Shown: positions 2 to 20,610, counted from the stretch's first letter. The stretch is DNA of 64,000 nucleotides from Candidatus Adlerbacteria bacterium (GCA_029288895.1 JARIGK010000001.1:65446-129445), one strand, 5' to 3'. The notes: generated by a model from the letters alone, not told the origin. Made by a program: numbers and translations.

Positions 2-2761
2 ACTGCAACAACTTCAATCAACGGTGTATTGACCCAAGGTACAGGCTCAACACAAACAATCTTCCGTAACGGTAACCAGTACATTGGCGCTTCAAGCTTC
101 TTTAACCTCTCATATATTGGTAACCCGCTAACAGAAGGAAGTGGCTACCATGCAAGCGTGTTTAACAACTCGGTTGGTAACCGCGGCGAAGTATTGCAGC
201 TTGGCGGTGCGATGGGATCAAACACTGGCGTCGGTAACTTTATCGGTGCACTCTCGTTCGTAAACTCAAATTCAAGCGGCGGTAACCCTGGCCAGACCGC
301 AACAATCTACGGCTTTAACGACACAGCAGCAAACAACGGTGCGATGGCCTTCTTTACGCAAAATACAAGCGGCACTGCAACAGAAGCAATGCGCATCAAC
401 AGCAGCCAGCAGGTTGGCATTGGCACCACAACGCCTGCGGCGGCACTTGATGTGCGTGGTTCAGGCGGTAACGTTGGCATATTCGAAGCTGACGGCACTG
501 CAACCAACCCGACCCAATTACAGATCCGCGGCGTATCAAATTACAACAAAGTTTTCCAGATCGGCTACAACACAACAAATAGTTACGGTTCGCTCCAGGC
601 GCAAACGGTTGGCTCCACCTTTGACCCAATCGCCCTCAACCCATTGGGCGGCAACGTTGGTATTGGTACAACGACGCCAGGCTCTCCGTTAACTGTGTCT
701 GGTGCTGGCCTTGTCAGTACGTTTTACAATACAAACACGAGTAGTGATCAGCCGGTGCGTATGCTCCAACCAAGCCTTTCTACAGGTAATTCCACATCGC
801 TCGATATTGGTACTGCATGGAATTCAAATTACAACTCCGGTCAATTGCAGTTCACTAACGCGGGAGGTACGGGTAGTCAGTCCAATTATATTGGATTGGG
901 AGTATGGGGACAGACAAATGGTCTTATTGTGAACGGCTTCGGCAATGTTGGTATCGGTACTACATCGCCTGTTGCGACACTTGGCATGACGGGCAGCATC
1001 GGCGTTAACTCGACGCAGCTCTCTATTAATGCAAACGGTAGCGTTGGCGTAGGTACAAATACAACAAATGCGAAATTTACTATCAACGGAACCGGCGGCA
1101 ATGCATCGCACGGCGAGTTGGAAATTTCGAACACAGCCGTTACTTCGAACCTCGGCATCATAGGTATCGAAACAGGAAATAACTCATTGGCAAACGGCGG
1201 CACCTTGGGCGATCTCTCTATCATATCGGCCGGAAGCCTCATTTTGCAGGCGGGCGGCGGGGGAACGGTAAAGTTTAATAACACATCGACGGGGCAGGCT
1301 CAATTCTTCGGCTGGTCACAGCTCGACACCGACCCTAGAAGCGGCGCGATATTCGTAGGCAGCAACTCAGGATTCCGCGGAGTAATCCAATACGGTGCCA
1401 ACCCTTCAAGTTCGCTTTCTATCGACAATACCTACGACTCATCTACGGGTATTGGTATCCAATTTAGAACTCGCACCTCCGGCACCTCAACGACAACTGC
1501 AATGGCTATTCTCAACAATGGCAACATCGGTGTCGGTACAACAAACCCTGGACAGAAATTAACGGTGGCGGGCGCTGACAACTCGGCAACAGTTTCTATT
1601 GGTTTGTTCCGCAGTTCGCTTGATTATGGCCTGCTGCTGTCGACTGTCGGTAGTACAGGCAATTCAAGCATTGTTGCCTCGGGCAGCGGTTCAAGTTTGA
1701 CTCTTGGTGCAAGCGGGACCTCACCTTTTGTAATAGCTTCAAACGGCAACGTCGGTATTGGTAGTACGTCGCCTTCGCGAATAATGTCTATCCAGTCTGC
1801 AGTGTCGACTGCGCAGATGACGGTTGCATACGACACATCGCGCTACACCGACTTCCTCACAAACTCTGTGGGCGACCTTACGATCACGCCGCAGGGCCAA
1901 GACATCTTCAGCAACGACAGCAACCTCTGGATCTGTTCTGGCGGCTCGTGCCCAAGCGGTACGCCAACTGGCACCGGTAACATCATTGTCGAAAACAACA
2001 TCGGTATTGGTACTACGACGCCGAAGTATCGTCTCACTATTGAATCGCAAAACAACACTGACAACCTCTTCCAGATTGCGTCGTCGACAAACCAGAGTAT
2101 CGTCGTTGTAAACGCAAACGGCCGTGTCGGTATCGGCACCTCGACTCCAAGCCAGCAGTTCTCGGTTGCAGACCGCCTCTTCGTTGGCGCAGGCGGTGCG
2201 TCGGGTATGGGTACTGCAACGTCGACCTTCCAAGGCGACATCAAGATCACCGGTAAGCTCGACGTCGGCACCATCGACCCTGTGTACACCATCGACGGCG
2301 TGAAGTACGCAACCTACGGCCACTCGACTGTGGGCCTCAAAGAAGAAGCTGTCGCCGTACTTGAGGTGACAGATAAAAATCCAAAGACCGGCAAGTACGA
2401 AAAGAAAATCTCATTCAAAGATTTGGACAAAGGAAGCGACCTCTGGCTCTTCTACCAAGTCACTGACTTTGGTGATAATTGGAAGAACCTTGTCATCAAC
2501 CTGACGGCGTCGTTCGACGGCTCGGTCTTCTATACCAAGGTGCCGAACGAGGCAGCGGTTGTCGTTTCGGCAGACCAGCCTGGCGAAGTCTCGGCGCGCT
2601 TTATCGCAAACCGCTTCGACTCCGACAAGTGGCCGAATATTCGCCCAGACCAAAACGGGCCGTATAAGGGCCATGAGCTCCAAACTACGCCGACAGGGCA
2701 GGCAACTGCCGTGGGCAGCATAATGCCAATTCGTGCCGATGCCTTTGATCCGGCACAGTAG
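2..2761 (+). CDS. 5'-partial giant extracellular repeat protein with about 40-aa periodic G-N-V-G-I-G-T-T-x-P repeats (tail-fibre-like or beta-helical surface protein). The reading frame is open to the window edge.
   Basis: More than 15 copies of GNVGIGTTTP / GSVGVGTNTT / NIGVGTTNP / RVGIGTSTP motifs at regular spacing. Gly/Asn/Ser/Thr-rich with no Cys until the C-terminus. No stop between position 2 and the annotated TTG at 29. Confidence 0.6.
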   Translation, partial: TATTSINGVLTQGTGSTQTIFRNGNQYIGASSFFNLSYIGNPLTEGSGYHASVFNNSVGNRGEVLQLGGAMGSNTGVGNFIGALSFVNSNSSGGNPGQTATIYGFNDTAANNGAMAFFTQNTSGTATEAMRINSSQQVGIGTTTPAAALDVRGSGGNVGIFEADGTATNPTQLQIRGVSNYNKVFQIGYNTTNSYGSLQAQTVGSTFDPIALNPLGGNVGIGTTTPGSPLTVSGAGLVSTFYNTNTSSDQPVRMLQPSLSTGNSTSLDIGTAWNSNYNSGQLQFTNAGGTGSQSNYIGLGVWGQTNGLIVNGFGNVGIGTTSPVATLGMTGSIGVNSTQLSINANGSVGVGTNTTNAKFTINGTGGNASHGELEISNTAVTSNLGIIGIETGNNSLANGGTLGDLSIISAGSLILQAGGGGTVKFNNTSTGQAQFFGWSQLDTDPRSGAIFVGSNSGFRGVIQYGANPSSSLSIDNTYDSSTGIGIQFRTRTSGTSTTTAMAILNNGNIGVGTTNPGQKLTVAGADNSATVSIGLFRSSLDYGLLLSTVGSTGNSSIVASGSGSSLTLGASGTSPFVIASNGNVGIGSTSPSRIMSIQSAVSTAQMTVAYDTSRYTDFLTNSVGDLTITPQGQDIFSNDSNLWICSGGSCPSGTPTGTGNIIVENNIGIGTTTPKYRLTIESQNNTDNLFQIASSTNQSIVVVNANGRVGIGTSTPSQQFSVADRLFVGAGGASGMGTATSTFQGDIKITGKLDVGTIDPVYTIDGVKYATYGHSTVGLKEEAVAVLEVTDKNPKTGKYEKKISFKDLDKGSDLWLFYQVTDFGDNWKNLVINLTASFDGSVFYTKVPNEAAVVVSADQPGEVSARFIANRFDSDKWPNIRPDQNGPYKGHELQTTPTGQATAVGSIMPIRADAFDPAQ

Positions 2762-2781
2762 GGAGGAGTATACTAACCACT

Positions 2782-2973
2782 ATGAGACGCGTGCTCGCAT
2801 TACTCACCCCATTGTCGCTTGTAGGCATACTGAGTTTCTACGGAATCTCGTGGCTCCATGCGGCGCCAGAGCCAACGATGTGCGCAGTTACAGACCATAC
2901 TGCTTCTGCAACGGTCCCACAGGCACACACAGACGAGAGAGTTTATTTTGTTGGGTGCGGCGGGCTTTTCTAA
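2782..2973 (+). CDS. 63-aa exported or membrane-anchored small peptide (cassette 1 peptide). Hydrophobic N-terminus, conserved C-terminus ...ERVYFVGCGGLF.
   Basis: The palindromic -10 box AGTATACT lies 7 nt upstream of the ATG. The stop overlaps the next ATG (TAATG). A paralogous peptide at 14802 has the same C-terminal motif. Confidence 0.6.
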   Translation: MRRVLALLTPLSLVGILSFYGISWLHAAPEPTMCAVTDHTASATVPQAHTDERVYFVGCGGLF

Positions 2974-3422
2974 TGAGCACCAAAGACCCACGGGATTGGC
3001 GGATTGTGCCCACTGTATATAAGGAGGGGGAGTACGCAGCGCCTATTGCACGTTTTGAACGGAGCGATTTTGTATGGGAAAAACTCGGCGCAACACTCGA
3101 TGCGCACCGCCCACACGGGCTCGGTATTATGCTTTCGTTTGCATGGCAGCTCCATACGTATGCATATAACGAAGCAAACAAACGAGGTGTGGTGACTGCG
3201 GTTGCCATGCCCACCAACGTAAGCGCCTTGTCGGGGCTTATGAAATCAGTGCCTATTGATGCAGTGCTGACAACAGACGAAGGTGCGCGCGCGTTTATGG
3301 ACGATCTGCGCGAGGTAGGTATGCTCGAGCGCATCAAGGTATGGATTATCGTTTCACCCAAAGATGCGCCTAGCTCATTCACCGCACCCGTCGGTGTCAC
3401 CGTGCATGACATACTCCCATGA
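2973..3422 (+). CDS. About 150-aa protein of unknown function (cassette 1 middle gene). It is translationally coupled to the peptide upstream and the ligase downstream.
   Basis: ATG overlaps the peptide stop (TAATG). Its stop overlaps the ligase start (ATGA). About 40% identical to the 15012..15335 product (GLGI[ML]L, VxAVA[ML]P[TS]x[VI]SAL[ST]GL and IKxW[IF]IV motifs). Confidence 0.6.
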   Translation: MSTKDPRDWRIVPTVYKEGEYAAPIARFERSDFVWEKLGATLDAHRPHGLGIMLSFAWQLHTYAYNEANKRGVVTAVAMPTNVSALSGLMKSVPIDAVLTTDEGARAFMDDLREVGMLERIKVWIIVSPKDAPSSFTAPVGVTVHDILP

Positions 3423-4702
3423 ATAATCAACACGCACTTCTTCAAACAGCGCTCGACTTCGCGCTCCGAAATCCGCACTCTGATTTTTATCGTCGGAAGT
3501 TTGGCGCATCGTGGGAACAGTATTTTGGCAAGCCAATAGAAGACATTCCATTTCTGGTGCGAAAAGAAATTGATGATGCGCCGATATTTGAACGGACGTT
3601 TGTACCGCGCGAGATGGTGCGTTTTATCCGCTCGACGTCAGGCTCGAGCGGGAAACATGTGATCGGGTTCCCGATGCTTGAAGAAGGGTTGTATCAAGAA
3701 TTTTTGCGTTCTATCGGGTATACGCATACACCGGGGCAGCTCTCGCGTTACTTCGAACCATACTTTACGCAGATGAATATACGCTCGATGCTGCTCTTTT
3801 CCGCTGGCGCGTTTGTGCATGAGGCTCGCGTGCGAGACATGGAAGGAAGGCAGTGTATCGCTGGAGAATTTTCGCAACCCAAACTTACGGCACAGCTCGG
3901 TACCGAAGCCGCTGTGGATGCAATTGTCGGCAACCCAAGCGGGCTGGTCGATTTTGCTCCGCATATGCGTGCTGCCGGGGGCCATACAGGCGTCCGCCTT
4001 ATTATCTCGGTTGGTGAGCGCCCCACGGCACTCCAGTTTGAAACACTCGAGACTTCGTTCCCGAATGCAAAAATTGCATTGCAGTATGGCCTTACAGAAT
4101 CGCAAGGATATGTTGGCTATACCTGTCCAGAAAAACTAAGCGTCGACCCCAAAGCGCTGCACTTGGCAGAGGGGACCCTCTTTATGGAACTTATCGACCC
4201 GGATACCGAAGCGGTATTGCCGCTCCAGCCTGGCACCGAAGGCGAGGTGGTTATAACTACGCACGAACCGCAAGGATTCCCACTTATACGCTATCGGACC
4301 GGAGATTTTGCACGCATTCGCGAAGAGTCCTGTAGCTGTACGGGGAGCCCCTTGTTGTTTGAATGTATGGGGAGGCTCGAGCTTGATCGCGTGCGCGTCC
4401 CCAAAGGCATGCTCACGATTGCAGCAATTGAGCATGCAATTTTTGGGTTTGGCGGCGTTCGCGAATTTGAAGCGAAGTGGAATACAGACGGTGGCCTGCC
4501 TCGATTGGAGATTTCTTTATATATGGAACACCGATACGCTGCAGAACATGTTATGGCCGATGAGCTTGCGTCGCGCATCCGTATTGCGCCCACAGTAACC
4601 TACAAAACAATAGTGGACGAAGGTCGCGCACTGCCACTGTCCGTAACGATACTGCCTCCCGAACAGTGGGTCGGCTGGAAAAAGAAAAAGCGATTGCGTT
4701 AG
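3419..4702 (+). CDS. PaaK / coenzyme F390 synthetase / CapK-like adenylate-forming enzyme (ANL superfamily). Cassette 1 ligase.
   Basis: P-loop-like RSTSGSSGKHV near residue 70, a YRTGD hinge motif and a C-terminal subdomain of about 100 aa. Total length 427 aa, typical of phenylacetate-CoA ligase-like enzymes. Confidence 0.75.
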   Translation: MNNQHALLQTALDFALRNPHSDFYRRKFGASWEQYFGKPIEDIPFLVRKEIDDAPIFERTFVPREMVRFIRSTSGSSGKHVIGFPMLEEGLYQEFLRSIGYTHTPGQLSRYFEPYFTQMNIRSMLLFSAGAFVHEARVRDMEGRQCIAGEFSQPKLTAQLGTEAAVDAIVGNPSGLVDFAPHMRAAGGHTGVRLIISVGERPTALQFETLETSFPNAKIALQYGLTESQGYVGYTCPEKLSVDPKALHLAEGTLFMELIDPDTEAVLPLQPGTEGEVVITTHEPQGFPLIRYRTGDFARIREESCSCTGSPLLFECMGRLELDRVRVPKGMLTIAAIEHAIFGFGGVREFEAKWNTDGGLPRLEISLYMEHRYAAEHVMADELASRIRIAPTVTYKTIVDEGRALPLSVTILPPEQWVGWKKKKRLR

Positions 4703-5634: not shown

Positions 5635-7089
5635 ATGCGTATAGTTCGCACGTTTCTGCCAGCACTGGCGCTCGTCCTTGTGTGCGTGGTTTACATGCTA
5701 TTGCCGTTAGCAACACAAGACGCAGGAGGCGCCCTCCTTTCATGTGCTGCTATAGGTGTCGTGTTGTTGGCCATACTGGCGTGGGGGTATGTGCCTAGCC
5801 CTCGCCACTGGCATGTATCCCAATGGCTGCTTGTGGCATGTATAGGTTCGGTTTTTGTATCTGTGCTTCTGTCAAAAAATTACGCCCATGCGTTATGGGG
5901 ATTTTCGTTCGACATGACATCCGCGTTCTTCCTTTTGTTTGTATTCGTACTCCCACTTATTGTGGGTGGGCTTCCGGTCCATGTGCGGAGAATTATTTTT
6001 TTGGCGTCTTGTGTATCGCTTGCATTGCTCTTGATATATCCGCTCGTGCGCTCGGAAGTGTATGTCCGCCCGTCGAACGATGCCACAATGGGAATTGAAG
6101 CTGCCTCGTATGCAGATGGCGGGACGCGTGCACTCCTTGTTGGTGTAGGGCCCAACTCATTTTTGTATGCCTGGCAAAAATACAGGCCAACTGCGGTACT
6201 CACAACGCCATTTTGGAATGAAGATTTTCCTGTAGGTGGTAGTGTGCTCGCAACACTCATGATCGAATGTGGCGTACTGAGTGTCTTGCTCTTGTGTCTC
6301 GCATACTTGTCTGCGTGTGCAGAGGAAGTATGGAGAAGTCTCACAGAGGAATATTCGATCATTAGAAAAAGTTTGTATACGTTGCCTGCGTGGATCGTTC
6401 TTGGCTCTTTGTTTGCTCTTATGTTTGCGGAGCCGTCGGCGCCGCTGGTGTTGGTGTGTGGAATGCTTCTTGGGTCATTTCGCTTTCATACAGAGCCACG
6501 GATTGTACTCGGCCCATGGACTCGCGGCGCAGGTGTTGTAGTGGGTGTTGCATACCTGTGCGTTGTGGCCTATATAGCAACCGCTGTTATATTTTATTTT
6601 TCTGCGTTCTCAAAAGTGCAAGCGCAAGATCTGACTTCGGCGCAACACACAGGAGAATATTCCTATCAGCTCTATAAAAATCCACAGACTGCACGATTTC
6701 TTTCGCAGACCTTCCGTTCGCTTGGTCATGAACTTGGGCGGACGCACGTAGGGCAGGACACAATCCAAGCTTCCTTCCATGCTGCGAGCGCATATGCCCG
6801 TGCAGCAACGGTGCAAGAACCACAGAATGGCCAAAATTGGAAATTGCTTGGTATCAGTCTCGCAGAAGAATTAGCGCTGCAAAAAAATGCCGCCTTTTTT
6901 AGTGAAGGTAAAAAAGCTTTTGATACAGCAGCGGTGCGTATTCCTGCTGACCCATCAATTTTCTTTTTCGAAGCCCAGCTATATATCTTGGCAGGGGACA
7001 GAGAGGGTGCAAAGTCCTTGCTTGATAAAGCGCTTGCTTTGAAGCCTGACTATACCGAAGCAAACGATCTGCGTACGGCCATACAGTAG
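5635..7089 (+). CDS. Polytopic membrane protein, O-antigen ligase/Wzy-like, with a C-terminal TPR-like region.
   Basis: At least 10 predicted TM helices followed by a soluble C-terminal helical-repeat region (KALALKPDYTEAND). A TATACT box lies 6 nt upstream of the ATG. Confidence 0.45.
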   Translation: MRIVRTFLPALALVLVCVVYMLLPLATQDAGGALLSCAAIGVVLLAILAWGYVPSPRHWHVSQWLLVACIGSVFVSVLLSKNYAHALWGFSFDMTSAFFLLFVFVLPLIVGGLPVHVRRIIFLASCVSLALLLIYPLVRSEVYVRPSNDATMGIEAASYADGGTRALLVGVGPNSFLYAWQKYRPTAVLTTPFWNEDFPVGGSVLATLMIECGVLSVLLLCLAYLSACAEEVWRSLTEEYSIIRKSLYTLPAWIVLGSLFALMFAEPSAPLVLVCGMLLGSFRFHTEPRIVLGPWTRGAGVVVGVAYLCVVAYIATAVIFYFSAFSKVQAQDLTSAQHTGEYSYQLYKNPQTARFLSQTFRSLGHELGRTHVGQDTIQASFHAASAYARAATVQEPQNGQNWKLLGISLAEELALQKNAAFFSEGKKAFDTAAVRIPADPSIFFFEAQLYILAGDREGAKSLLDKALALKPDYTEANDLRTAIQ

Positions 7090-7098
7090 GGCACTACT

Positions 7099-8643
7099 AT
7101 GAGAACAGCAGAACATCGAACGCTCTACGTCCGTATTTTTTTGAGCGCCATCTGTCTTGGTGTGTGTCTGTTGAGCGCACGAAATTATACTTCCACGCTG
7201 CCGCTTGGATATAACGTCGTACTTATAAGCATTGATAGTCTGCGCACCGATCATATGAGTTTGTACGGATATGAACGTCCGACAACCCCCACTATCGATG
7301 CGTATGCAAAGGGCGCGGCTGTATTCGACAACTATTTTTCGACGAGCATGATAACCCCGATAAGCGAGATGAGCGTACAAACAGGCACGTACCCATTTAC
7401 GAGCGGCCTCATCAATTTTGAATCCATTCTTTCTCCTAAAGTCGAAACTCTAGCCGAAGTGCTCCATGCACATGGATGGAAGACAGCGTCGTTTGGCTCT
7501 TCGGTCGAGTTCGACCTTCCGGTTTCGAAAATCGATTTCTCCAGAGGGTTTGATGCGTATGTTGGTAATGTCAATCTAAAAGAAAAACCATTGCCGTGGT
7601 TTGGGCGCAACGATTCGCATATAGATGAAGCGCTTGCGTGGGCGAGAAACGCATCATATGGCACGCAGCCGTTCTTTCTGTGGCTACGTATCGGCTCGGC
7701 TCATTGGCCGTATGGGTATGATGAACCTGCGCACGTTACGGACCCGGCCTACGATGGGCCGATGAAAGCAGACATGTCATCCCCTACAGAGCAGGAGATG
7801 ATATCTATGTTTAGCCAACGGTACGGCACTATTTGGAACGGCCGCGAGTATGGAGTGAATGCCGGCCGCAGTAGTGCAGGTGTGCAAGAAGATATTTCAT
7901 ATATTACTGATAGATATGACGATGGCATTATCAAAACAGATCGTGAGCTAGCGCCGCTTCTGGCGTTTCTTTCGCAAACGTATATCGCCGACAGAACGAT
8001 TGTCATTATTGAGTCCGAACACGGAGAAGGGTTAGGGGAAAGGGGATACGTAGCGCATTACGACATATCAGATGATGAAACTCATGTTCCACTTATTATC
8101 AAAGCACCCTTGCTGCGCCCACAAAACGTACAAGATTTGATTTCTGGCGTTGATGTATTCCCCACACTTATGGCCGCACTTCATCTTCCGCAGAAAAAAG
8201 TGGACGGGATAAATTTCCTCCCGCGGCTGTCGGGTGCATCAAGCACTACTCCACGCGGTGAGATATTTTTGACGCGCACGCCGCTGTGGGAGCGAATCTT
8301 GAGTACGGAGGTGCCGTGGCTTTTGCCGCTCGTACCCAAAGACAACGCTGCCAACTATCACGATACGGCACTACGAACAGATGAATGGAAGCTTGTGCAT
8401 CGCACTGCGCGCCAGGCAGAAGAGCAATACTCGTGGTACGGGCACATGAGCGGTGTGCCTGTCGTGCGCCCAGAGTACGAGCTGTACCACATGCCCACTG
8501 ACCCGCACGAGACTATGAATGTGTATGCAGAGTACCCACAGATCGCAGAGGCTCTCAAAGAAAAACTGCTTTCGTGGGAACGTATAACAGAGGGGCGTAG
8601 TACTATACAAATGAAACCAGGAAGCCTTCAGCCGTATTTTTAA
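7099..8643 (+). CDS. Alkaline-phosphatase-superfamily ('sulfatase-like') membrane-anchored enzyme with a Thr nucleophile motif. Likely a phosphodiesterase or phosphotransferase acting on an envelope polymer.
   Basis: N-terminal metal-binding motif ISIDSLRTDHMSLYGY. Nucleophile region ITPISEMSVQTGTYP resembles the NPP/EptA-type T-x-P...TG-x-YP motif, not the sulfatase C/S-x-P-x-R motif. Confidence 0.6.
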   Translation: MRTAEHRTLYVRIFLSAICLGVCLLSARNYTSTLPLGYNVVLISIDSLRTDHMSLYGYERPTTPTIDAYAKGAAVFDNYFSTSMITPISEMSVQTGTYPFTSGLINFESILSPKVETLAEVLHAHGWKTASFGSSVEFDLPVSKIDFSRGFDAYVGNVNLKEKPLPWFGRNDSHIDEALAWARNASYGTQPFFLWLRIGSAHWPYGYDEPAHVTDPAYDGPMKADMSSPTEQEMISMFSQRYGTIWNGREYGVNAGRSSAGVQEDISYITDRYDDGIIKTDRELAPLLAFLSQTYIADRTIVIIESEHGEGLGERGYVAHYDISDDETHVPLIIKAPLLRPQNVQDLISGVDVFPTLMAALHLPQKKVDGINFLPRLSGASSTTPRGEIFLTRTPLWERILSTEVPWLLPLVPKDNAANYHDTALRTDEWKLVHRTARQAEEQYSWYGHMSGVPVVRPEYELYHMPTDPHETMNVYAEYPQIAEALKEKLLSWERITEGRSTIQMKPGSLQPYF

Positions 8644-8648
8644 GTACT

Positions 8649-10091
8649 ATGAATCTCACGAAATTTTTCTCGACGCGGTCCGGTATACAAGTGTTAGTTG
8701 CGGTTGGTCTGTGTGTACTTGTAGGTTTTTTTATTTTTCTGGGAGAGCATAGATCTGCGTCGTCTGGCCCATCGTTTGGAGTTTGTCGCGGGTGCAACGT
8801 CCTTATCATAGGCGTTGATACACTCCGTGCTGACCGTTTGCATGTCTTTGGCTATAGCCGAAATACGACACCAACCATTGATGCCCTTGCCGCAAAAGGG
8901 TACGCCTTTTCAAATGCAATAGCGCCAGCAAGTTGGACTGTCCCTTCGTTTATGTCTATTTTTACGGGCACGTACCCTTCGGTGCATGGTGTTACAAATA
9001 AGTTTATTTCGTTTTCACAAGACCAAAAGCAACTTTCAAATTTGAAAATAACGGCTCCGCAAATCCAAACGCTTGCAGAAGTGCTCAAAGCAGAAGGCTA
9101 TGCAACGGGTGGCTTTACTGGAGACGCGGGCGTGTCGGGAAAGTTTGGATATAACCTTGGGTTTGATGCGTATACCGATGAGAAAGCGTTTGGAGGCTTA
9201 GAAAACAGCAAGAGCCACGCGTTAGCGTGGGCAGATCAGCTCGGCGACAAACATTTCTTTATGTTTTTCCACGGCTACGATTTGCATGGGCAATCGGCTC
9301 CGTCTGCTACAAACCCGTTTCTAGACTCTACGTATCACGGGCCCTACACCGGTAGTCCTCAAGAAGAATCAGTGTTGCGCGAGGGCGTGTTGACGCCCAA
9401 AGGCATCACGCTGACTCCGCAAGATGCGAAGTTTTGGAGCGATACGTATGACGGCAAAGTTGTACAGGCAGACAAAGAATTACAAACATTTTTGACAGAC
9501 ATGTCCGTGCGCGGATTGCTTAAGAACACACTCATCGTGTTGGTGTCAGACCATGGAGAGGAGTTTTATGAACACAAAGGGTTTGACCACGGACATACGC
9601 TCTATGACGAACTCGTACACGTCCCGCTTATCTTCGTTGTCCCAGGGATGCAGGGAGGCCAGATAATCAAGAGCCAAGTCAGTACCATGGATGTTATGCC
9701 GACCATCCTCTATCTCCTTGGGATTACCCCGCGCGGAGAGCTGTCCAATCAGTTGTCAGGCAGAGCGAATCTGGCATCGTACTTTACTGCCACATCAACG
9801 AAAGGGTATGACGTTTTTTCGGAAACTAACTACCGCGGGTACACCTATAAAAGGAGCGTGCGCACAGCGGATGGATGGAAGTATATTTTGACCCTCGAAA
9901 CCGGGAAAGAAGAACTATATAACCTCACTGTCGACAAAGGAGAGCATACGAATCTTGTTTTGACAGACGCAGATAAGGCAGAACAATTACGTGTTGAATT
10001 AAGGAATCATCTCGAGCAGGATCTACACTACGATATGTCGAAAACGCCAGCCGTTACATGCCTCCCTGTATATGACGGGGAATGTAAGTAA
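8649..10091 (+). CDS. Paralogous alkaline-phosphatase-superfamily enzyme with a Thr nucleophile motif, membrane-anchored.
   Basis: IIGVDTLRADRLHVFGY and SWTVPSFMSIFTGTYP motifs. It lies 6 nt after the previous paralog. Confidence 0.6.
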   Translation: MNLTKFFSTRSGIQVLVAVGLCVLVGFFIFLGEHRSASSGPSFGVCRGCNVLIIGVDTLRADRLHVFGYSRNTTPTIDALAAKGYAFSNAIAPASWTVPSFMSIFTGTYPSVHGVTNKFISFSQDQKQLSNLKITAPQIQTLAEVLKAEGYATGGFTGDAGVSGKFGYNLGFDAYTDEKAFGGLENSKSHALAWADQLGDKHFFMFFHGYDLHGQSAPSATNPFLDSTYHGPYTGSPQEESVLREGVLTPKGITLTPQDAKFWSDTYDGKVVQADKELQTFLTDMSVRGLLKNTLIVLVSDHGEEFYEHKGFDHGHTLYDELVHVPLIFVVPGMQGGQIIKSQVSTMDVMPTILYLLGITPRGELSNQLSGRANLASYFTATSTKGYDVFSETNYRGYTYKRSVRTADGWKYILTLETGKEELYNLTVDKGEHTNLVLTDADKAEQLRVELRNHLEQDLHYDMSKTPAVTCLPVYDGECK

Positions 10092-10148
10092 TCAAGAGCG
10101 TTTACAGGGCTCTTTGTGGCAGCTCCGGGTATACGGTATTCTTCTAGT

Positions 10149-10745
10149 ATGAGTACTCGTCCCATTCCTCGTCTTGTAGTCGGAGGAATACTGATGTGCC
10201 TTATATTTGCTCTCGCTCTTCAGGGTGGCGAGGCGTCTGCTGCAACACTTACGTCTCCGGTGACAGTGACAGGTAGTATTAGCGTGCTCGGCACGCTCTC
10301 CAAAGGTTCTGGTACATTCGTCATTGACCATCCGCTCGACCCTGCGAACGAATTGCTGTACCACTCCTTCGTCGAATCACCAGATGTAAAAAACCTCTAC
10401 GACGGCATCGCCACACTCGACAGCAAGGGGGAAGCGACAATTGTGTTGCCAGATTATTTTCTTGCACTCAATAAAGATTTTCGATATTTAGCAACACCCA
10501 TTGGCGCTCCTATGCCTACCTTGCATTTGGGCAAAGAGGTGGGCAAGCGCTGGTTTAATCTCTTTGGGGCAATACAATTTAAAATAACGGGTGGTGTGCC
10601 GGGCGGCCGCGTCTCATGGCAAGTCACGGGCATCCGCCACGACAAATTTATCGAGGACAATCCTATCCAGGTTGAAGTAGAAAAGACTGACGACACACTG
10701 GTAAAGAAGGGTGAATATCTTTTCCCTGAATTCTATGGACACTAA
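10149..10745 (+). CDS. Secreted protein with a conserved 'GSGTFVIDxPxDPANxLLYHSFVESPDVKN' domain (paralog 1 of 3).
   Basis: Signal/TM segment followed by the core KGSGTFVIDHPLDPANELLYHSFVESPDVKNLYDGIATLDSKGEATIVLPDYF, which is nearly identical in the next two genes. Confidence 0.55.
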   Translation: MSTRPIPRLVVGGILMCLIFALALQGGEASAATLTSPVTVTGSISVLGTLSKGSGTFVIDHPLDPANELLYHSFVESPDVKNLYDGIATLDSKGEATIVLPDYFLALNKDFRYLATPIGAPMPTLHLGKEVGKRWFNLFGAIQFKITGGVPGGRVSWQVTGIRHDKFIEDNPIQVEVEKTDDTLVKKGEYLFPEFYGH

Positions 10746-11292
10746 ACGAAACACTCTAAGAATTGGTGTAAGTATGTTAATACTGGCGATTCCCGTGCTC
10801 GCGTCTGCTGTCACCCTCACTGGAAACATACAATTTAAAGGAAATTTGGCGATAACAGGGGCGCTCTCGAAAGGCTCCGGCACCTTCGTCATCGATGATC
10901 CCATTGACCCTGCTAACAAACTGCTCTATCACTCGTTCGTCGAGTCGCCAGATGTAAAAAACATCTACGACGGCATCGCAACACTCGACAGCAAAGGGGA
11001 GGCAACTATTGTGCTGCCAGATTATTTCGATGCGTTGAACAAGGATTTTCGGTATGAATTTTTCCCGCTCGATAAGGCCGATCCAGGGCTCTATATAAAA
11101 ACTGGCGCCGACGTTGTGAAGAATCAATTTACGATTGCGGGCGGGACGCCAGGCGACCGCGTTTCGTGGCAAATCACTGGCATCCGCCACGACCCGTACA
11201 TTCTTGCGAACCCGGTTGTGGTAGAGGTTCCGAAAACCAACGATACTATTGTAAAAAAAGGCCAGTATCTATTTGAGGGGTATGAAAAATAA
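10735..11292 (+). CDS. Secreted conserved-domain protein (paralog 2 of 3).
   Basis: Same core domain with more than 85% identity over about 70 aa. The start is uncertain; either ATG 10735 or ATG 10774. Confidence 0.5.
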   Translation: MDTKRNTLRIGVSMLILAIPVLASAVTLTGNIQFKGNLAITGALSKGSGTFVIDDPIDPANKLLYHSFVESPDVKNIYDGIATLDSKGEATIVLPDYFDALNKDFRYEFFPLDKADPGLYIKTGADVVKNQFTIAGGTPGDRVSWQITGIRHDPYILANPVVVEVPKTNDTIVKKGQYLFEGYEK

Positions 11293-11986
11293 GACGATAT
11301 ATTTTTTTGCGCTTGCTTCACTTATATGTATGCCCATGGTGTGCGTGCACGCCTACGCTGAAGGCGGATATTACGGCCAAGGATATTATGAAGGGTATTA
11401 CCAAAGCTATTATCAGCCGTACTATCAGCCGTACTATCAGCCAACGTATCAAACGGTATTTACAAAAAATGCTGCTGCAAGCAAGACGGTGGCGGTTACG
11501 GGTAGCGTATCAAAAAGCTCCGGTACCTTCGTCATTGATGACCCAATCGACCCCGCTAACAAATTGCTTTACCACTCGTTCGTCGAGTCGCCTGACGTCA
11601 AAAACATCTACGATGGCATCGCAACACTCGACAGCAAGGGGGAAGCGACAATTGTGTTGCCCGATTATTTCGATGCGTTGAACAAGGATTTTAGATATCT
11701 GACGCGCCCAATTGGCGCCCCTATGCCAAACCTCTACATCAAAGATGAAGTGCACGACAACACATTTAGTATCGGTGGCGGGAGCCCTGGTGGACGTGTC
11801 TCATGGCAAGTCACTGGGATTCGCCACGATGCGTATATCGTTGCACACCCTATTGTCCCGGTGGTGGATAAAAGCAAAGACACAATCGTCGACCGTGGGA
11901 GCTATATCTATCCTGCAGGATTCACTTCATTTGGGAGTACATTCTTTGGATCTCTCTCGACGTTTTTTAATGCTATTTTCCACTAG
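11282..11986 (+). CDS. Secreted conserved-domain protein (paralog 3 of 3) with an N-terminal Tyr/Gln-rich low-complexity stretch.
   Basis: GGYYGQGYYEGYYQSYYQPYYQPYYQPTYQ followed by the same core domain. Confidence 0.5.
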   Translation: MKNKTIYFFALASLICMPMVCVHAYAEGGYYGQGYYEGYYQSYYQPYYQPYYQPTYQTVFTKNAAASKTVAVTGSVSKSSGTFVIDDPIDPANKLLYHSFVESPDVKNIYDGIATLDSKGEATIVLPDYFDALNKDFRYLTRPIGAPMPNLYIKDEVHDNTFSIGGGSPGGRVSWQVTGIRHDAYIVAHPIVPVVDKSKDTIVDRGSYIYPAGFTSFGSTFFGSLSTFFNAIFH

Positions 11987-11989
11987 CGC

Positions 11990-13177
11990 ATGAAGAAGTA
12001 TGTGCTTGTTGCGTGTGCCGGTGCGCTCCTTGTAGGAAGCGCAGCGCTGGTGTATGTAAAACACATACATACAACGCCCGAAGCATATGCCAAGAGTATT
12101 GTGGCTCGCTGCGCCAGTGCAGCCGACCGCACGCAGTGTTATGTGGACGAAGTGCCAAAACTTCTCGACCAAGGGGTAACGTTTGAACATTCGTTTGAAG
12201 TTGCGTACGACATCCAAGAACTCGACCAGACAGGCGAGTACTGCCATCGCATTGGGCACGCGCTTGGTGGGGCGGAAGTAGCAAAAGATCCTACTAAATG
12301 GAAAGAAGTTGCGCGCCGCACGCCGCTTGGCGAATGTCTTGCAGGAGGCTTGCATGGTGCGTTTGAAGAACATTTCAGTAAAGAGTCCCTTGCGCCTTCA
12401 GATATCCCAGCATTTAAACAAGAGATGCGCGGATTTTGCGATGTTCAGGCAGATATTCCATCATCGCCGGTGGATTTGACCATGTGTTCGCACGGTTTAG
12501 GCCATCTCTTTGTGTATGCAACAGCTGGAGATGTACAGGAATCGATCGACTTATGTTCTTCGATGAACTTTAAAACGGAAGGCGGCGTCACTGCAGAAGG
12601 CCAAGAGCTTTCCTGTTATGACGGTATGTTTATGCAGTTGCTTGAACCGCACGACAGTGAAGACGCAGCTCTTATTAAAGGGCATGAGCAAACAAAAGAT
12701 ACCGTGGGCGCCTACTGCAATGCATTCGCGCCGCTCGTACAAGCTGCATGTATCGCCCGAAGTGCCCCATTGTTTTATAAAGACTTAAATGCTGGTGCGC
12801 CCAAGCCGCTCGATTGCAATATGCTTGATAGCCAGCGTCGGCGTGACTCGTGCCTTTCGACACAGCTTCGTCTCTTTGCCCGTGATACGTTTTTTAACCT
12901 TGATGCCACGGACGACTACTGCGCTACCTACCCACAAAATAAACGGGGGTGGTGTTATGCGTCTGCTGGTTCGTTTGCGTTTATGTCCGGGTACGATTAC
13001 GAGCAGCCCTATCGTTTTTGTGCGCGGGCAGCAGCGCTTGGGGTTGGCGACCAATGCTATCAGACGCTTGCGAACATCATCCCTAACACATTCCGCGAAG
13101 ATGATCCGTCTCGTAAAGAGTTGTGCGAAAAGCTGCCCAGCGCTTATGTGCAGGCATGCATTGCGCAGCAGCAGTAA
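11990..13177 (+). CDS. Membrane-anchored, extracytoplasmic Cys/His-repeat protein (family member A). About 7 repeats of C-x-x-G... including C-x-HG-[LI]-GH.
   Basis: N-terminal TM segment. Motifs CHRIGHALG, CLAGGLHGAF, CSHGLGHLFVY, CYDGMFMQ and others. 16 Cys in total. Confidence 0.55.
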   Translation: MKKYVLVACAGALLVGSAALVYVKHIHTTPEAYAKSIVARCASAADRTQCYVDEVPKLLDQGVTFEHSFEVAYDIQELDQTGEYCHRIGHALGGAEVAKDPTKWKEVARRTPLGECLAGGLHGAFEEHFSKESLAPSDIPAFKQEMRGFCDVQADIPSSPVDLTMCSHGLGHLFVYATAGDVQESIDLCSSMNFKTEGGVTAEGQELSCYDGMFMQLLEPHDSEDAALIKGHEQTKDTVGAYCNAFAPLVQAACIARSAPLFYKDLNAGAPKPLDCNMLDSQRRRDSCLSTQLRLFARDTFFNLDATDDYCATYPQNKRGWCYASAGSFAFMSGYDYEQPYRFCARAAALGVGDQCYQTLANIIPNTFREDDPSRKELCEKLPSAYVQACIAQQQ

Positions 13178-13183
13178 AGCCCG

Positions 13184-14779
13184 TTATTTTCTAAGCTCGA
13201 GTAGTCGTGCTGTAAGTGGTGCGAATACTTCTGTGTGAGCGCGCGCATCCAGTGCTAGAAGGGTAGATAGTGCGTATGCAGATTGTAGGTCGCGTTTGTA
13301 CGAAAGTAGTGTATAGCCTGTAGGTGCAAGCTCCACTGTCGAGCGACTTTCAAATAATGATGTGCCAGGGGGGAATGGGCCCGTCTCATTTCCGATCATA
13401 AAGAGAGATGAAATGCCGCCGCGCAACATAAAAAACACGCTCGTCCGGTATGGGTCGTACGTGCCGGTAACATAGGTGCCAAGCGAAAGGTCATCGAAGT
13501 AACCTACGACACGCTCAAAATGTGCGCTTCCTGTGCGCGAAGCTAATACAAGGTTCCGAAGCGTTTCGAGTTGTTCGGCCCCAAGCATCGCAGGGAGTGT
13601 GCGTTGGTCTGTTGTAGTGAGGAGCCGTTCCGCACTTTGTATAAATGCTCGATACGATTGCTCGCGAGGCACATCTTCACTAATGAGTTCGTTTTGTGCA
13701 GCGAGCATATCATGTACGGTGGATGAGTTAGAAGGCATGAGCGGGACGATAGGATGTTGTTGCAATGTTTCGCGTGCGTCTTGTATCGACAGCAGAAGCC
13801 CAACGTCCTGGCCAAAATCTTGGCAAATATAGGCATTAAATGATTGGTTGGAATAGGTCGCCCCAGTGTTGTAGTACGCCTTGCTGTAGCGCACGGGTAT
13901 TTTCTTGAGGTCGTAAAAGAAAGAGTCGTTCAAGATTGTAAAATATTCCGCTGTCACGCCAGAAAGTATGGACGCGTGTGTTCCCACATCAACATATGCA
14001 GGAGTAAATGACGGATAGCATCGTGAATGAGAAAGTGCAACGGTGGTCGTGTCGGTAAGCGTTACGCCGAGGCGTGCAGTAAACGCACGCGCTGCAGTTT
14101 TGATATACGCCACATCGCTCGGGAGGTCGGTCGATGCAGGTAATGTGTTCTGTGCTGATGGAGAAGAGGCTCCTGATGGAGGCCAATACCTCCAGTGTGC
14201 GCACTCGAGCACGTTACCTTCTGCACACGAGTAGCGCCTATTTTCTTCTTTTCTCATTGCGATGAGCCCTTGTCTGCCTCGTTCGAGCACTGACATGATA
14301 TACCCTGAGCTTGTAGTGCCGCCAAAGGATTGAATGGTAGTTTTTTTGCCGACATCGAGCGCCGCAATATCGTGTGCGAGCGCTGCATCATATGAATCAA
14401 AAAGTGCGAGAAGGGCAGCGTGGTACGCGTCTGCATGTGCTGATGTCGGCTCTGTAAGGAGTGCTCTTCGTTTTTCTTCTGCCGAGGCGCTAGCTTCAAG
14501 AAATGCGATTGGGTAGACACCGTGGCTCCATGAGCCATCCGAATCGTCGCTGAAGGGGAGTACTGCAACGCGCGCACTTTTTTCGAGCTCTTGTGTCGCC
14601 GTGATCATATCAGGCAGCGATGTTCGAGGAAGCGCCATCATGGGATATTCCTCATGTTGCCGTGCATATCCGGCCCATCCATCTGCGTGTGCGGAGTAGA
14701 AGAAATACCCTAGAACTATAAGGATACAAAGGAGAAGTGCGAGACCAAGGCGGAGTGCACGTATTCTTGCAGCCTTCAT
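13184..14779 (-). CDS. 531-aa N-terminally membrane-anchored protein of unknown function (paralog of 16615..18246).
   Basis: Single N-terminal TM segment. Shares AEPT(S/Q)xHAxxYHAAL(L/H)AL and other blocks with the 546-aa paralog. Divergent from the cassette 2 peptide, sharing the AGTATACT palindrome. Confidence 0.55.
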   Translation of the reverse strand: MKAARIRALRLGLALLLCILIVLGYFFYSAHADGWAGYARQHEEYPMMALPRTSLPDMITATQELEKSARVAVLPFSDDSDGSWSHGVYPIAFLEASASAEEKRRALLTEPTSAHADAYHAALLALFDSYDAALAHDIAALDVGKKTTIQSFGGTTSSGYIMSVLERGRQGLIAMRKEENRRYSCAEGNVLECAHWRYWPPSGASSPSAQNTLPASTDLPSDVAYIKTAARAFTARLGVTLTDTTTVALSHSRCYPSFTPAYVDVGTHASILSGVTAEYFTILNDSFFYDLKKIPVRYSKAYYNTGATYSNQSFNAYICQDFGQDVGLLLSIQDARETLQQHPIVPLMPSNSSTVHDMLAAQNELISEDVPREQSYRAFIQSAERLLTTTDQRTLPAMLGAEQLETLRNLVLASRTGSAHFERVVGYFDDLSLGTYVTGTYDPYRTSVFFMLRGGISSLFMIGNETGPFPPGTSLFESRSTVELAPTGYTLLSYKRDLQSAYALSTLLALDARAHTEVFAPLTARLLELRK

Positions 14780-14801
14780 CAGAGACAGTATACTTTACTG
14801 C

Positions 14802-15002
14802 ATGAAGAGGAGATTCGCCCTCATACCACTATTTCTCCTTTCAGCCCTTGCTGTGGGAATGCTTTCTTCAAAAAGAGATGCAGCACTGAGCTGTGTCGAG
14901 CCTGGGGTGGGCGCATCTGCTCCGAACATGTCGAATTCTTCGTCGGTACAAGCAGAAGAGTCAGATCGAGTCTACAATATTTGGTGCGGAGGCGTTTTCT
15001 AA
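14802..15002 (+). CDS. 66-aa exported or membrane-anchored small peptide (cassette 2 peptide). C-terminus ...DRVYNIWCGGVF.
   Basis: Paralog of the 2782..2973 peptide. AGTATACT lies 7 nt upstream of the ATG. Confidence 0.6.
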   Translation: MKRRFALIPLFLLSALAVGMLSSKRDAALSCVEPGVGASAPNMSNSSSVQAEESDRVYNIWCGGVF

Positions 15003-15011
15003 AACGACGGT

Positions 15012-15335
15012 ATGGATGATGCACATAGGACGTCCGCGTGGCCCGCACTCGGGCGCATGCTTGATGATATCCAACCCAAAGGCCTTGGCATTTTGTTGCC
15101 CCCGATACTTCAACTCCATCGACCTGCATATCTTGAAGCGCGTGCGCGCACTATTGTAGTCGCTGTTGCGCTTCCGTCGCAGATTTCCGCACTTACTGGT
15201 CTGGTTGAAGAAGCTTCGATCGAAGCTGTTATAGCAACACAAGGAGCGGCGAATGAATTTGCTGCCGATTTGGAGCGAGTAGGGCTTACAACAAATATAA
15301 AAGCCTGGTTTATTGTCGACGAAAAACCACTATGA
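15012..15335 (+). CDS. 107-aa protein of unknown function (cassette 2 middle gene), paralog of 2973..3422.
   Basis: About 40% identity to the cassette 1 middle gene. Its stop overlaps the ligase start. Confidence 0.55.
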   Translation: MDDAHRTSAWPALGRMLDDIQPKGLGILLPPILQLHRPAYLEARARTIVVAVALPSQISALTGLVEEASIEAVIATQGAANEFAADLERVGLTTNIKAWFIVDEKPL

Positions 15336-16618
15336 CACCGCTCTCCCGCGCGCTTTCATTTGCGATTGAAAATCCGCATTCTGATTTTTACCGCCGCAAG
15401 TACGGCAAAGACTTTCGTGCGTATATACAAAAAGAACTTTCGGAGATTCCATTTCTGACAAGACAAGAAATAGATACAACGCCCGTGTTTGACCGCATCT
15501 TTGTTCCAAAAGAAATGGTCCGGTTTGTGCGTGCGACCTCAGGTTCGTCCGGGCGCGGCGCAGTTCTATTTCCAGCAGTCGAAGAGCCGGAGATGATGGA
15601 CTTCCGACGTTCGCTCGGGTTTAGCGGCGACGAAGGTGAGGCCGGGCGCTACTTCGGGCCCTATTTTAAAAAAGAAGATGCATATTCACTGTTGATGTTT
15701 TCTACGTCCGATGCTTTGCATCAAGCCTATTTTTCCGACTACGCTGGCCGGAGGGTTATCGCGGGCGACTATCAACACGCAGAAAAGACAGTTGCACTGT
15801 CGGCAGCTGCAGGCGTTGATTCGATATTTTCATTTCCGTCGCCGCTTATCAGCATTGCAGACACTTTCAAAAAAGATGGTTTTGCCTCGCGCATCAAGAT
15901 GATTGTGCTCATGGGTGAGCGTATGACAGAACTCCAGCGCAGAACGCTTGTTGCGCAGTTTCCTCATGCAAAGATCGTCACGCTCTATGCGTCCACTGAT
16001 GCACATGGAACGATGGGGAATACGTGCCCTGCTCGCGTGACAGAATTTCCTAACCATATTCATCCGTTTCCAACATATGCGCTTGAAGTTATTGACCCTG
16101 AGTCGGGCATGGCGCTCCCTATGCAGGCAGGCACGGAAGGAGAAGTGGTAATCACGGCACTCACGCCGATGGCGTTTCCGCTCATTCGATATCGCACCGG
16201 AGATTATGCGGTCGTGCACGCCAGCGGCCCATGTGCGTGCGGCAGTACTGAGCCGCTTCTTGAGATTTTGGGCAGAGTAGAACTCGATCGCATTAAACTG
16301 CTCCCGTATGGCGGCGTGAGCGTTGCGGCTATCGAAGAAGCAATTGCTGCCCTTCCATTTCCTGTTCTTGATTTTACTGCTGCATGGTCACAGAAGGGTC
16401 CGCTGCCGGGACTCTCGCTCGTGCTCTATACCGACGGGTCTGTACCTCATGATTCTGTCGCGCTCGTGGCAGAGAAAATCCAAGTCAGCGCGACCCATAC
16501 GTATCACGATGTAGTGGTGCGTGGTGCTGTCTTGCCACTTACAGTTTCTTTTGAACCTGCAGCGGGTGCGCGTGGTCCGCATCATGCAAAGCCTAAACGT
16601 CTGCAGATTATCCGTTAG
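15332..16618 (+). CDS. PaaK / F390-synthetase-like adenylate-forming enzyme (cassette 2 ligase).
   Basis: RATSGSSGRGAV P-loop, YRTGD hinge, 428 aa. About 50% identity to the 3419..4702 product. Confidence 0.75.
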   Translation: MTPLSRALSFAIENPHSDFYRRKYGKDFRAYIQKELSEIPFLTRQEIDTTPVFDRIFVPKEMVRFVRATSGSSGRGAVLFPAVEEPEMMDFRRSLGFSGDEGEAGRYFGPYFKKEDAYSLLMFSTSDALHQAYFSDYAGRRVIAGDYQHAEKTVALSAAAGVDSIFSFPSPLISIADTFKKDGFASRIKMIVLMGERMTELQRRTLVAQFPHAKIVTLYASTDAHGTMGNTCPARVTEFPNHIHPFPTYALEVIDPESGMALPMQAGTEGEVVITALTPMAFPLIRYRTGDYAVVHASGPCACGSTEPLLEILGRVELDRIKLLPYGGVSVAAIEEAIAALPFPVLDFTAAWSQKGPLPGLSLVLYTDGSVPHDSVALVAEKIQVSATHTYHDVVVRGAVLPLTVSFEPAAGARGPHHAKPKRLQIIR

Positions 16619-18246: not shown

Positions 18247-18269
18247 GCGCTTCAAGTATACTAAATACC

Positions 18270-19517: not shown

Positions 19518-19527
19518 TATAGCCCAC

Positions 19528-20604: not shown

Positions 20605-20610
20605 TACACT

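Follow-up and report, generated by a model that had tools for sequence, protein, structure and literature searches.

The window analyzed here, one strand of 64,000 nucleotides from Candidatus Adlerbacteria bacterium (GCA_029288895.1 JARIGK010000001.1:65446-129445), contains two paralogous cassettes (Table 1). In each of them, a gene for a small cysteine-tailed peptide comes first, then one for a truncated ligase paralogue with no ATP-binding loop and then one for a complete ligase of the PaaK-like kind within the ANL superfamily. The two peptide open reading frames (ORFs) are genuine genes for membrane-targeted microproteins that are conserved as a family, and their link to one ligase clade is solid. 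Peptide 1, with the full sequence MRRVLALLTPLSLVGILSFYGISWLHAAPEPTMCAVTDHTASATVPQAHTDERVYFVGCGGLF, is organized into the residues MRR, a hydrophobic segment of ~22 residues, a polar linker, C34 and the C-terminal end RVYFVGC59GGLF-stop; its tail reads ...DERVYFVGCGGLF-TAA. Peptide 2, with the full sequence MKRRFALIPLFLLSALAVGMLSSKRDAALSCVEPGVGASAPNMSNSSSVQAEESDRVYNIWCGGVF, starts with MKRR and a hydrophobic segment, followed by C31 and the end RVYNIWC62GGVF-stop, with the tail ...SDRVYNIWCGGVF-TAA. Both peptides thus terminate in RVY-x3-C-G-G-[LV]-F directly before the stop codon, with the cysteine as fifth residue from the end, exactly as written in a first-pass annotation of this DNA. That annotation had filed both peptides under 2782-2973, which is correct for peptide 1; peptide 2 lies outside this interval, at 14802-15002. 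The further cysteine it had placed about 30 residues upstream is the only other one in each peptide and is located 25 residues (C34, peptide 1) or 31 residues (C31, peptide 2) upstream of the tail cysteine. The N-terminus of both peptides is a signal-anchor-like segment, which the first-pass annotation had overlooked, just as it had the truncated ligase paralogue, the extracytoplasmic partners and the second peptide type described below.

Table 1 Features in and around the two cassettes. Positions are counted from the first nucleotide of the window; aa, amino acids.
Feature	Position	Strand	Remarks
Promoter-like site TTGATC-18-TATACT	2745-2774	+	consensus match only
TATACT upstream of peptide 1	2769-2774		
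Peptide 1	2782-2973	+	63 aa
C-terminal motif of peptide 1	2938-2970	+	RVYFVGCGGLF
Cys codon in peptide 1 tail	2956-2958		
Stop codon of peptide 1	2971-2973		TAA
Small protein 1	2973-3422	+	149 aa; start overlaps peptide 1 stop (TAATG)
Ligase 1	3419-4702	+	427 aa; P-loop STSGSSGK, YRTGD, C-terminal Lys
"Big" protein	13184-14779	-	531 aa; divergent from cassette 2
TATACT upstream of peptide 2	14789-14794		
Peptide 2	14802-15002	+	66 aa
C-terminal motif of peptide 2	14967-14999	+	RVYNIWCGGVF
Cys codon in peptide 2 tail	14985-14987		
Small protein 2	15012-15335	+	107 aa; 47% identical to small protein 1
Ligase 2	15332-16618	+	428 aa; 42% identical to ligase 1
Second "big" paralogue	16615-18255	-	546 aa; convergent with ligase 2
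Repeat ORF running off the window start	29-2761	+	>910 aa
Polytopic membrane protein and two sulfatase-family proteins	5635-10091	+	PF00884 (sulfatase-family proteins)
Three tandem paralogues	10116-11986	+	209, 193 and 237 aa
Cys-rich proteins, four paralogues	11990-13177 and 18270-21846	+	366-415 aa

The peptide pair is far beyond chance, because the peptides occupy the same slot in paralogous cassettes, recur in 18 loci against none of 77 controls and show low ratios of non-synonymous to synonymous substitution rates (dN/dS), namely 0.28 for window peptide 1 versus its counterpart in locus L001 and 0.20 for the peptides of L004 and L005. In a six-frame scan of the window, the pattern CGGxx-stop was found nowhere else than in the two peptides, and no RNA family was detected by Rfam at either peptide locus. 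A search of a set of 5.8 billion proteins with the peptide profile gave no match; small ORFs of this kind are mostly not called as genes. The hexamer TATACT ends exactly 7 nt before the ATG of both window peptides, and most peptide genes, including those of L001-L003, L008, L020 and L023, have a -10-like hexamer (TATACT or TATAAT-like) that ends 4-10 nt upstream of their ATG. Little or no Shine-Dalgarno spacing is present upstream of both window peptide genes. These features, which are consensus matches only, suggest that the peptide genes may have their own, possibly leaderless transcripts.

To follow the peptides beyond the window, 95 loci with PaaK-like ligases were fetched (9 from reference genomes, 6 by exact-protein look-up and 80 from metagenomes) and searched for ORFs that encode 35-130 aa, have a hydrophobic N-terminus and end in C-[GNSA]-[GSTAN]-[LIVFM]-[FYILVWM]-(Q)-stop. 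Such a peptide ORF is present in 18 loci (196 kb), all of them beside ligases of one clade, and in none of 77 loci (539 kb), which serve as built-in control since all carry other PaaK-like ligases. The peptides are 62-86 aa long. All 18 have one to four Lys/Arg residues among their first ten residues and then a hydrophobic segment, and in all 18 the stop codon follows directly after the motif, for which the consensus tail is [VIL]-[YF]-x-x-[GSW]-C-[GSN]-[GST]-hydrophobic-hydrophobic-stop. Exactly two cysteines are found in 17/18 peptides, with a Cys-Cys spacing that varies from 11 to 31. Likewise in 17/18, exactly four residues follow the last cysteine, the exception being L010, where five do (CGGFIQ). 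In the Sungiibacteriota locus L007 (2803-4147), a full peptide (...EVLFAGCGGFF) is accompanied by a truncated second copy (...RGEDALFSGCGGFF, ending at 4147); the two copies are separated by small unrelated ORFs and followed by a thiamine pyrophosphate (TPP) enzyme and two tandem ligases. This TPP enzyme was dismissed as a conserved partner, being a generic acetolactate-synthase-like protein encoded at that locus only.

Homologues of the window ligases are few, with ~17 close ones, and those with a source name are all from bacteria of the candidate phyla radiation (CPR). The lineages with the system comprise Adlerbacteria, Nomurabacteria, Sungiibacteriota, Paceibacterota and Moraniibacteriota. 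Orthologues of peptide 1 are encoded in L001 and L002 and those of peptide 2 in L003, L004, L005 and L008. These six loci are close relatives, syntenic with the window over >10 kb, and due to this kinship and synteny the adjacency of peptide and ligase in them counts for little. The distant loci, with ligases only 23-30% identical to those of the window, are L007 (Sungiibacteriota), L006 (Paceibacterota) and the metagenomic or other contigs L010, L012, L014, L017, L019, L020, L023 and L029. There, the peptide is found upstream, downstream or on the opposite strand of the ligase, always within a few kb, so that the association persists in ~12 independent lineages despite rearranged gene order. 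In a neighbour-joining tree of 89 ligase sequences, the peptide-associated ligases form one clade apart from ~65 others. The only clade members without peptide (L009, L016 and L018) are all on truncated contigs, and every sufficiently long locus with a ligase of this clade also carries the peptide. Homologues of the "big" and small proteins of the cassettes and of an Lnt-like enzyme described below are, among the 95 loci, confined to those of the peptide type. The first-pass annotation had considered the motif a possible recognition element for the adenylating enzyme and had made this idea depend on further instances in homologous loci with the ligase at hand; the peptide is indeed present in all clade loci that are long enough, together with its ligase, and absent from the loci with other PaaK-like ligases. 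It is very improbable that peptide and ligase are mere neighbours, with an unmodified secreted or anchored disulfide peptide on the one side and a ligase of unrelated metabolism on the other: the synteny of L001-L005 and L008, where adjacency proves little, would allow it, but an association that recurs in so many independent lineages, in changing order and with one ligase clade only, argues against it.

The ligases of the window belong to the PaaK-like branch of the ANL superfamily, as judged from the P-loop [ST]SG[ST][ST]G, the motif YRTGD and the intact C-terminal lysine, and match PF00501 with E-values of 4e-5 and 6e-6. Their closest solved structures in a profile search of the PDB are the PaaK entries 9s3l/4r1l/2y27 (E 1e-17 to 1e-20). 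Assignment to PaaK proper (TIGR02155 / NF041878) was rejected, because the ligases reach 50-60 bits against a cutoff of 646-700. They also miss by far the thresholds of FlxY, the DVU_1553 family and every other NCBIfam family that they match. The ligases are members of the ANL superfamily outside PaaK proper and any other curated family. Among the NCBIfam models they resemble FlxY, of which the window ligases are weak matches, and BagE/FevW; the closest kind is aryl-acid ligases.

Contrary to the first-pass annotation, the ligase is not immediately adjacent to the peptide, since the ORF of the small protein (149 or 107 aa) intervenes. The stop codon of this ORF overlaps the start codon of the ligase in both cassettes. 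Neither Pfam nor NCBIfam gave a match for the small protein; by hhalign against ligase alignments it maps onto ligase residues ~127-201 with 85-95% probability. The AF2 model shows a beta-alpha-beta core at moderate quality (pLDDT 61), and Foldseek gave weak matches (E from 1.9e-3 upwards), with periplasmic-binding-protein folds among them. The top match is 5ie3, an entry whose title contains no enzyme name, and the ANL enzyme oxalyl-CoA synthetase (6qjz) appears as a weak match at rank 35. Because of the moderate model and these mixed matches, the assignment relies on hhalign, and on this basis we read the small protein as a probable truncated, P-loop-less paralogue of the ligase, which might assist the latter as a recognition subunit or as a scaffold. 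In L012, L017 and L010, its position is taken by longer versions (229-257 aa). In L004, another Adlerbacteria genome, the homologue at 5712-5995 is split into two pieces in different frames, which points either to a pseudogene with a frameshift or to a mistake in the assembly. Extra degenerate ANL-like ORFs of 254-374 aa in L010 (2955-4828, - strand) and L017 (4857-5981, - strand) form a separate deep branch of the ligase tree and possibly represent another, third kind of subunit derived from the ligase.

Based on tails and partners, the peptide loci fall into two types. Type A comprises the two window cassettes, L001-L005, L007, L008, L010, L012/L013, L017 and L019, and has the tail [VIL]-[YF]-x-x-[GSW]-C-[GS]-G-hydrophobic-[FYI]. 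Type B comprises L006, L014/L015, L020, L023 and L029 and has the tail IRVS-x3-C-x(10-14)-[HN]F-x-G-C-[NS]-[ST]-[ILV]-[LI], for example with the end C-N-S-I-L. The conserved partners of type A are the truncated ligase paralogue, detected in most of these loci but not in L007 and L019, and the "big" protein of ~530 aa. The two "big" paralogues of the window are 30% identical and flank cassette 2; further members are encoded in 9 independent fetched loci, including L007, L010, L012, L017 and L019. "Big" has a single N-terminal membrane anchor and conserved cysteines, three of them invariant and one nearly invariant. Its family contains 534 clusters at 50% identity, 365 of them with E <= 1e-10, and appears to be more widespread than the ligase clade. 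Pfam and NCBIfam contain no model for the peptide, the small protein or "big". The ABC transporters found beside the cassettes of L010 and L012 were rejected as a conserved importer or exporter, because they are not homologous to each other.

Type B loci have other conserved partners. The ligase is followed, usually directly, by a translationally coupled Lnt-like enzyme with the domains LNT_N and CN_hydrolase, whose catalytic region, as far as alignable, has the sequence [IV]CSE; enzymes of the Lnt family work via a Cys-thioester acyl-enzyme. A membrane methyltransferase of the ICMT/PEMT kind lies beside the ligase in four type B lineages (L014/L015, L018, L023 and L029). An aromatic amino-acid ammonia-lyase is encoded in three (L014/L015, L029 and L020), for example at 3226-4605 (- strand) in L014 and at 866-2104 (- strand) in L029. 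The best NCBIfam match of this lyase is FlxA, the tyrosine ammonia-lyase (TAL) of flexirubin formation, with 609 bits vs. a cutoff of 700, and it carries the ASG motif of the 4-methylideneimidazole-5-one (MIO) group together with a Ser-His selectivity motif as in histidine ammonia-lyase (HAL). Because of the FlxA-like score but HAL-type motif, both 4-coumarate and urocanate are possible products. By tblastn, no Lnt-like, ICMT-like or ammonia-lyase gene was found in the window; among the fetched loci, ICMT-like genes occur in no type A locus and Lnt-like genes in type B loci only.

Gene family, motif and the exclusive co-occurrence with one ligase clade are observed and point to a peptide-cysteine chemistry that is undescribed so far and probably involves a thioester. 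PaaK-like enzymes adenylate a carboxylic acid and hand it to a nucleophile, usually a thiol, and the cysteine, fixed in position within a flexible tail with Gly-Gly (or Asn-Ser), is the natural candidate for this role. We hypothesize, at a probability of about 35%, that the microproteins are dedicated partners of the PaaK/FlxY-like ligase and that the invariant cysteine at position -5 receives the ligase-activated acyl group as a thioester. Judged by small membrane proteins in general, peptides of 62-86 aa are probably completed ahead of their insertion into the membrane and could meet a cytoplasmic ligase, possibly with the truncated paralogue as scaffold. The ligase would adenylate the acid at the expense of ATP, and the thiol fifth from the C-terminus would capture the acyl group. 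After loading in the cytoplasm, the basic and hydrophobic N-terminus would place the C-terminal tail outside the membrane, where a partner, "big" in type A or the Lnt-like Cys-acyltransferase in type B, could take over the acyl group or process the peptide. The peptide would then act as a single-use thioester carrier or acceptor, uniting the roles that DltC and DltX have in D-alanylation; alternatively, the acyl-peptide itself might be the end product. In type B, the presence of an ammonia-lyase implies that the ligase acts on a small aryl acid, most likely an aryl-acrylic acid (4-coumarate or urocanate), so that the chain would run from the acid via acyl-AMP and S-Cys (peptide) to an extracytoplasmic enzyme or acceptor. 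This type B pairing together with the Lnt-like thioester enzyme favours, by homology, the same thioester step for type A, in which the acid may be a common one, an imported one or the peptide's own C-terminus. Thioether chemistry, which the first-pass annotation had named besides thioester chemistry, finds no support, as no dehydratase, radical-SAM or cyclase partner is conserved.

Several points weigh against thioester loading of the peptide. The model is at its weakest with the second conserved cysteine, which is accounted for neither by this model nor by the thiolactone model discussed below; a disulfide between the two cysteines would be the simpler outcome in an exported peptide and would compete with any thioester. 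No gene that supplies or imports an acid is conserved in type A loci, and the evidence from type B is carried over to type A at a ligase identity of only 25-30%. A polytopic acyl-translocating protein (MBOAT/AT3) is not present among the partners, so that the acylated tail would have to cross the membrane together with the peptide. "Big", the proposed partner in type A, has no relative in PDB or Pfam by a profile of 71 sequences, and its AF2 model (pLDDT 56) is too poor for an assignment, with nothing below E 0.1 in a Foldseek search against PDB. The neighbour-joining tree that defines the ligase clade has no bootstrap support values.

The acid of type A might be the peptide itself. In this case the ligase would adenylate the C-terminal carboxylate of the peptide and the cysteine would attack it, forming a five-residue (16-membered) thiolactone ring like that of an autoinducing peptide (AIP). 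The product would be exported and its N-terminal segment removed, giving a signal or a reactive surface peptide, with ATP taking the place of the AgrB protease. The strict spacing of four residues behind the cysteine in 17/18 peptides and the stop codon right after the motif fit such a ring, and so does its composition of small, small, hydrophobic and aromatic residues (...VGCGGLF or ...VWCGGVY), which matches staphylococcal AIPs such as that of S. hominis, SYNVCGGYF (PMC7641908). GrcB, a ThiF-like enzyme that forms a thiolactone in a ribosomal peptide at the expense of ATP, provides a precedent for ATP-dependent ring formation (PMC12596934). Moreover, F or Y occurs among the last three residues of type A, which has no acid-supplying gene, and aliphatic ends go with the lyase in type B; a C-terminal Phe or Tyr is a 3-aryl-propanoic acid and resembles the coumarate and phenylacetate that related ligases accept. 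However, we know of no ANL/PaaK-type enzyme that activates a peptide C-terminus, the L010 peptide has its cysteine sixth from the end and a C-terminal Gln, and the sister clade of type B evidently uses a small acid. The second cysteine and the partner "big" are left unexplained, and the peptides are much longer than the mature parts of AIP precursors. On this evidence the thiolactone, the closest rival of the acyl thioester, is possible, yet on the whole unlikely.

The agr system resembles the cassettes in that a short peptide of ribosomal origin, whose N-terminal segment associates with the membrane, carries a reactive cysteine and exactly four further residues of the ring, an arrangement present in 17/18 of our peptides. 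AgrD differs in having an acidic tail behind the ring, whose cleavage by AgrB drives thiolactone formation, whereas the cassette peptides stop right after the motif, have an ATP-dependent ANL ligase as partner, a second conserved cysteine and a linker of 25-45 residues. A charged tail after the ring is lacking in 18/18 peptides and there is no AgrB-type Pfam match among the cassette proteins, so that membership in the agr system was rejected. GrcA and GrcB, a streptococcal peptide that is made by the ribosome and modified after translation (RiPP) with its enzyme, share with the proposed chemistry the adenylation of a carboxylate followed by capture through a Cys thiol near the peptide C-terminus. 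In that pair the enzyme is of the E1/ThiF kind with a RiPP recognition element (RRE) domain instead of an ANL/PaaK ligase, and the carboxylate of GrcA belongs to a Glu side chain.

An activated C-terminus could also be passed on to an amine. The carboxylate would be joined by an amide bond to a lipid head group, the cell wall or a protein, comparable to ubiquitin/Atg8-type tagging, and the cysteine pair would form a disulfide. Exactly two cysteines in 17/18 peptides, their predicted extracytoplasmic location, the paired conserved cysteines of "big", the strictly C-terminal motif with hydrophobic end and an amide-forming Lnt-like enzyme in type B are consistent with conjugation of this kind. 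We nevertheless regard it as improbable, because the membrane lies between the cytoplasmic ligase and the likely acceptors, because no acceptor or E2-like component is conserved, and because a cysteine fixed at position -5 is not explained as a mere disulfide partner when the spacing between the two cysteines is so variable.

The first-pass annotation was right that the tail is neither a textbook CAAX box nor a double-glycine leader. The cysteine is at position -5 (-6 in L010), and no prenyltransferase was seen among the Pfam-scanned window ORFs of 1-23.3 kb; in contrast to the leaders of C39 peptidases, GG is three residues from the C-terminus. The ICMT-like partner reopens the idea of CAAX-like processing for type B, in which the cysteine would be S-modified, the last four residues clipped and the new Cys carboxylate methylated. 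Both the methyltransferase next to the ligase in four lineages and the C-N hydrolase-family (Lnt-like) enzyme would suit such a route, as would the cysteine followed by aliphatic residues, which recalls eukaryotic CAAX proteins and ICMT. Eukaryotic CAAX processing differs in the position of the cysteine and in its prenyltransferase and Rce1/Ste24, none of which was seen here, and since ICMT-like and Lnt-like genes are absent from the window and ICMT-like genes from type A altogether, the route is relevant to type B at best and hardly probable even there.

The closest functional analogue of the peptides, if they are loaded with an acyl group, is the membrane microprotein DltX, whose strictly C-terminal motif FXYXXF carries D-alanine on Tyr in a pathway begun by the ANL enzyme DltA (PMC12148441). 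The two kinds of peptide share a single N-terminal helix and, at the very C-terminus and outside the membrane (as predicted for the cassette peptides), a conserved hexapeptide with an aromatic last residue and a reactive or candidate residue at a fixed position; an ANL adenylating enzyme goes with both, DltA as the first enzyme of its pathway. The candidate nucleophile of the cassette peptides is a Cys (thioester) and that of DltX a Tyr (ester), and the partners are "big" or the Lnt-like enzyme, with no DltC. No MBOAT or SGNH Pfam match was obtained among the scanned window ORFs of 1-23.3 kb or the conserved partners, and because of this and of the tail C-G-G-hydrophobic-F in place of FXYXXF with Tyr, membership in the DltX/MBOAT system was rejected. 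For type B, a second comparison is instructive. The chromophore of photoactive yellow protein is provided by TAL and a p-coumarate ligase and bound as a Cys thioester, and flexirubin formation uses FlxA/FlxY. Type B resembles these systems in combining an ammonia-lyase, an aryl-acid ligase and a conserved cysteine as candidate acceptor, but its acceptor would be a membrane peptide of 70 aa and not a PAS-domain protein, the lyase has the HAL-type Ser-His motif and type A is without lyase. LuxE, a PaaK-related acyl-protein synthetase, passes the activated acyl group to a Cys near a protein C-terminus and thereby acylates itself; in the present system this Cys would sit on a separate microprotein.

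Bacterial lipoproteins and diacylglycerol (DAG)-RiPPs are recognized by the lipobox [LVI][ASTVI][GAS]C right after the hydrophobic region of the signal peptide (PMC13056109). This class was rejected as well, because TM, LS, LQ, TF, LF, LN and others precede the first Cys of the cassette peptides and charged residues separate it from the hydrophobic segment. The system has one class feature of RiPPs, a precursor gene co-located in a clade-specific manner with a dedicated enzyme, and this feature is generic. We place the system among known kinds, namely a ribosomal peptide with an adenylating enzyme and a microprotein with a C-terminal reactive tail. In the literature, we found no paper in which an enzyme of the PaaK-like or F390-synthetase kind is combined with a RiPP or precursor peptide and none on a cluster of lyase, Lnt and ligase in CPR bacteria; on RiPPs of Patescibacteria, only general genome-mining surveys were found.

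The cassettes are embedded in a series of genes for further membrane-anchored, repeat-containing or Cys-rich proteins. Directly upstream of cassette 1 is an ORF that contains GIGTTxP-type repeats, has no Pfam match and is conserved at this position in L001 and L002. Behind ligase 1 lie the genes for a polytopic membrane protein, which has TPR repeats at its C-terminus, and then for two PF00884 proteins, both with an N-terminal hydrophobic segment. The three tandem paralogues share the core ...GSGTFVIDxPxDPANxLLYHSFVESPDVKNxYDG... and have no Pfam match; one or more copies are present in L001-L005, and three tandem copies in L002-L005. The four Cys-rich paralogues around cassette 2 have an N-terminal anchor each and are kept in L002-L005 and L008, not in the distant loci; the two that were scanned (11990-13177 and 18270-19517) are without Pfam match. 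With these genes, the surroundings of the cassettes (~24 kb) form a block of envelope or secreted proteins.

CPR (Patescibacteria) cells are tiny symbionts whose surface and signalling biology is mostly uncharted. In one such small genome, a microprotein with its dedicated ATP-dependent ligase is present in duplicate. Standard genome mining is blind to the system, because most records lack an annotation of the peptides, and our analysis gives a context to three families without annotation: the peptide, the truncated ligase paralogue and "big" with its 534 clusters. If the proposed thioester at the cysteine is true, it would be a novel way of making reactive or signalling peptides or of acylating the envelope, and the ligase would be the first of the PaaK type (ANL) to be paired with or to act on a ribosomal peptide. 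We speculate further, and this extension is doubtful, that CPR bacteria use the peptides as thioester ferries, the cysteine being charged in the cytoplasm with an acid or with the peptide's own C-terminus and the acyl group crossing the membrane on the peptide tail and being passed to extracytoplasmic Cys enzymes ("big" or Lnt-like). Acyl-transfer chemistry outside the cell could then be driven in the absence of an MBOAT protein.

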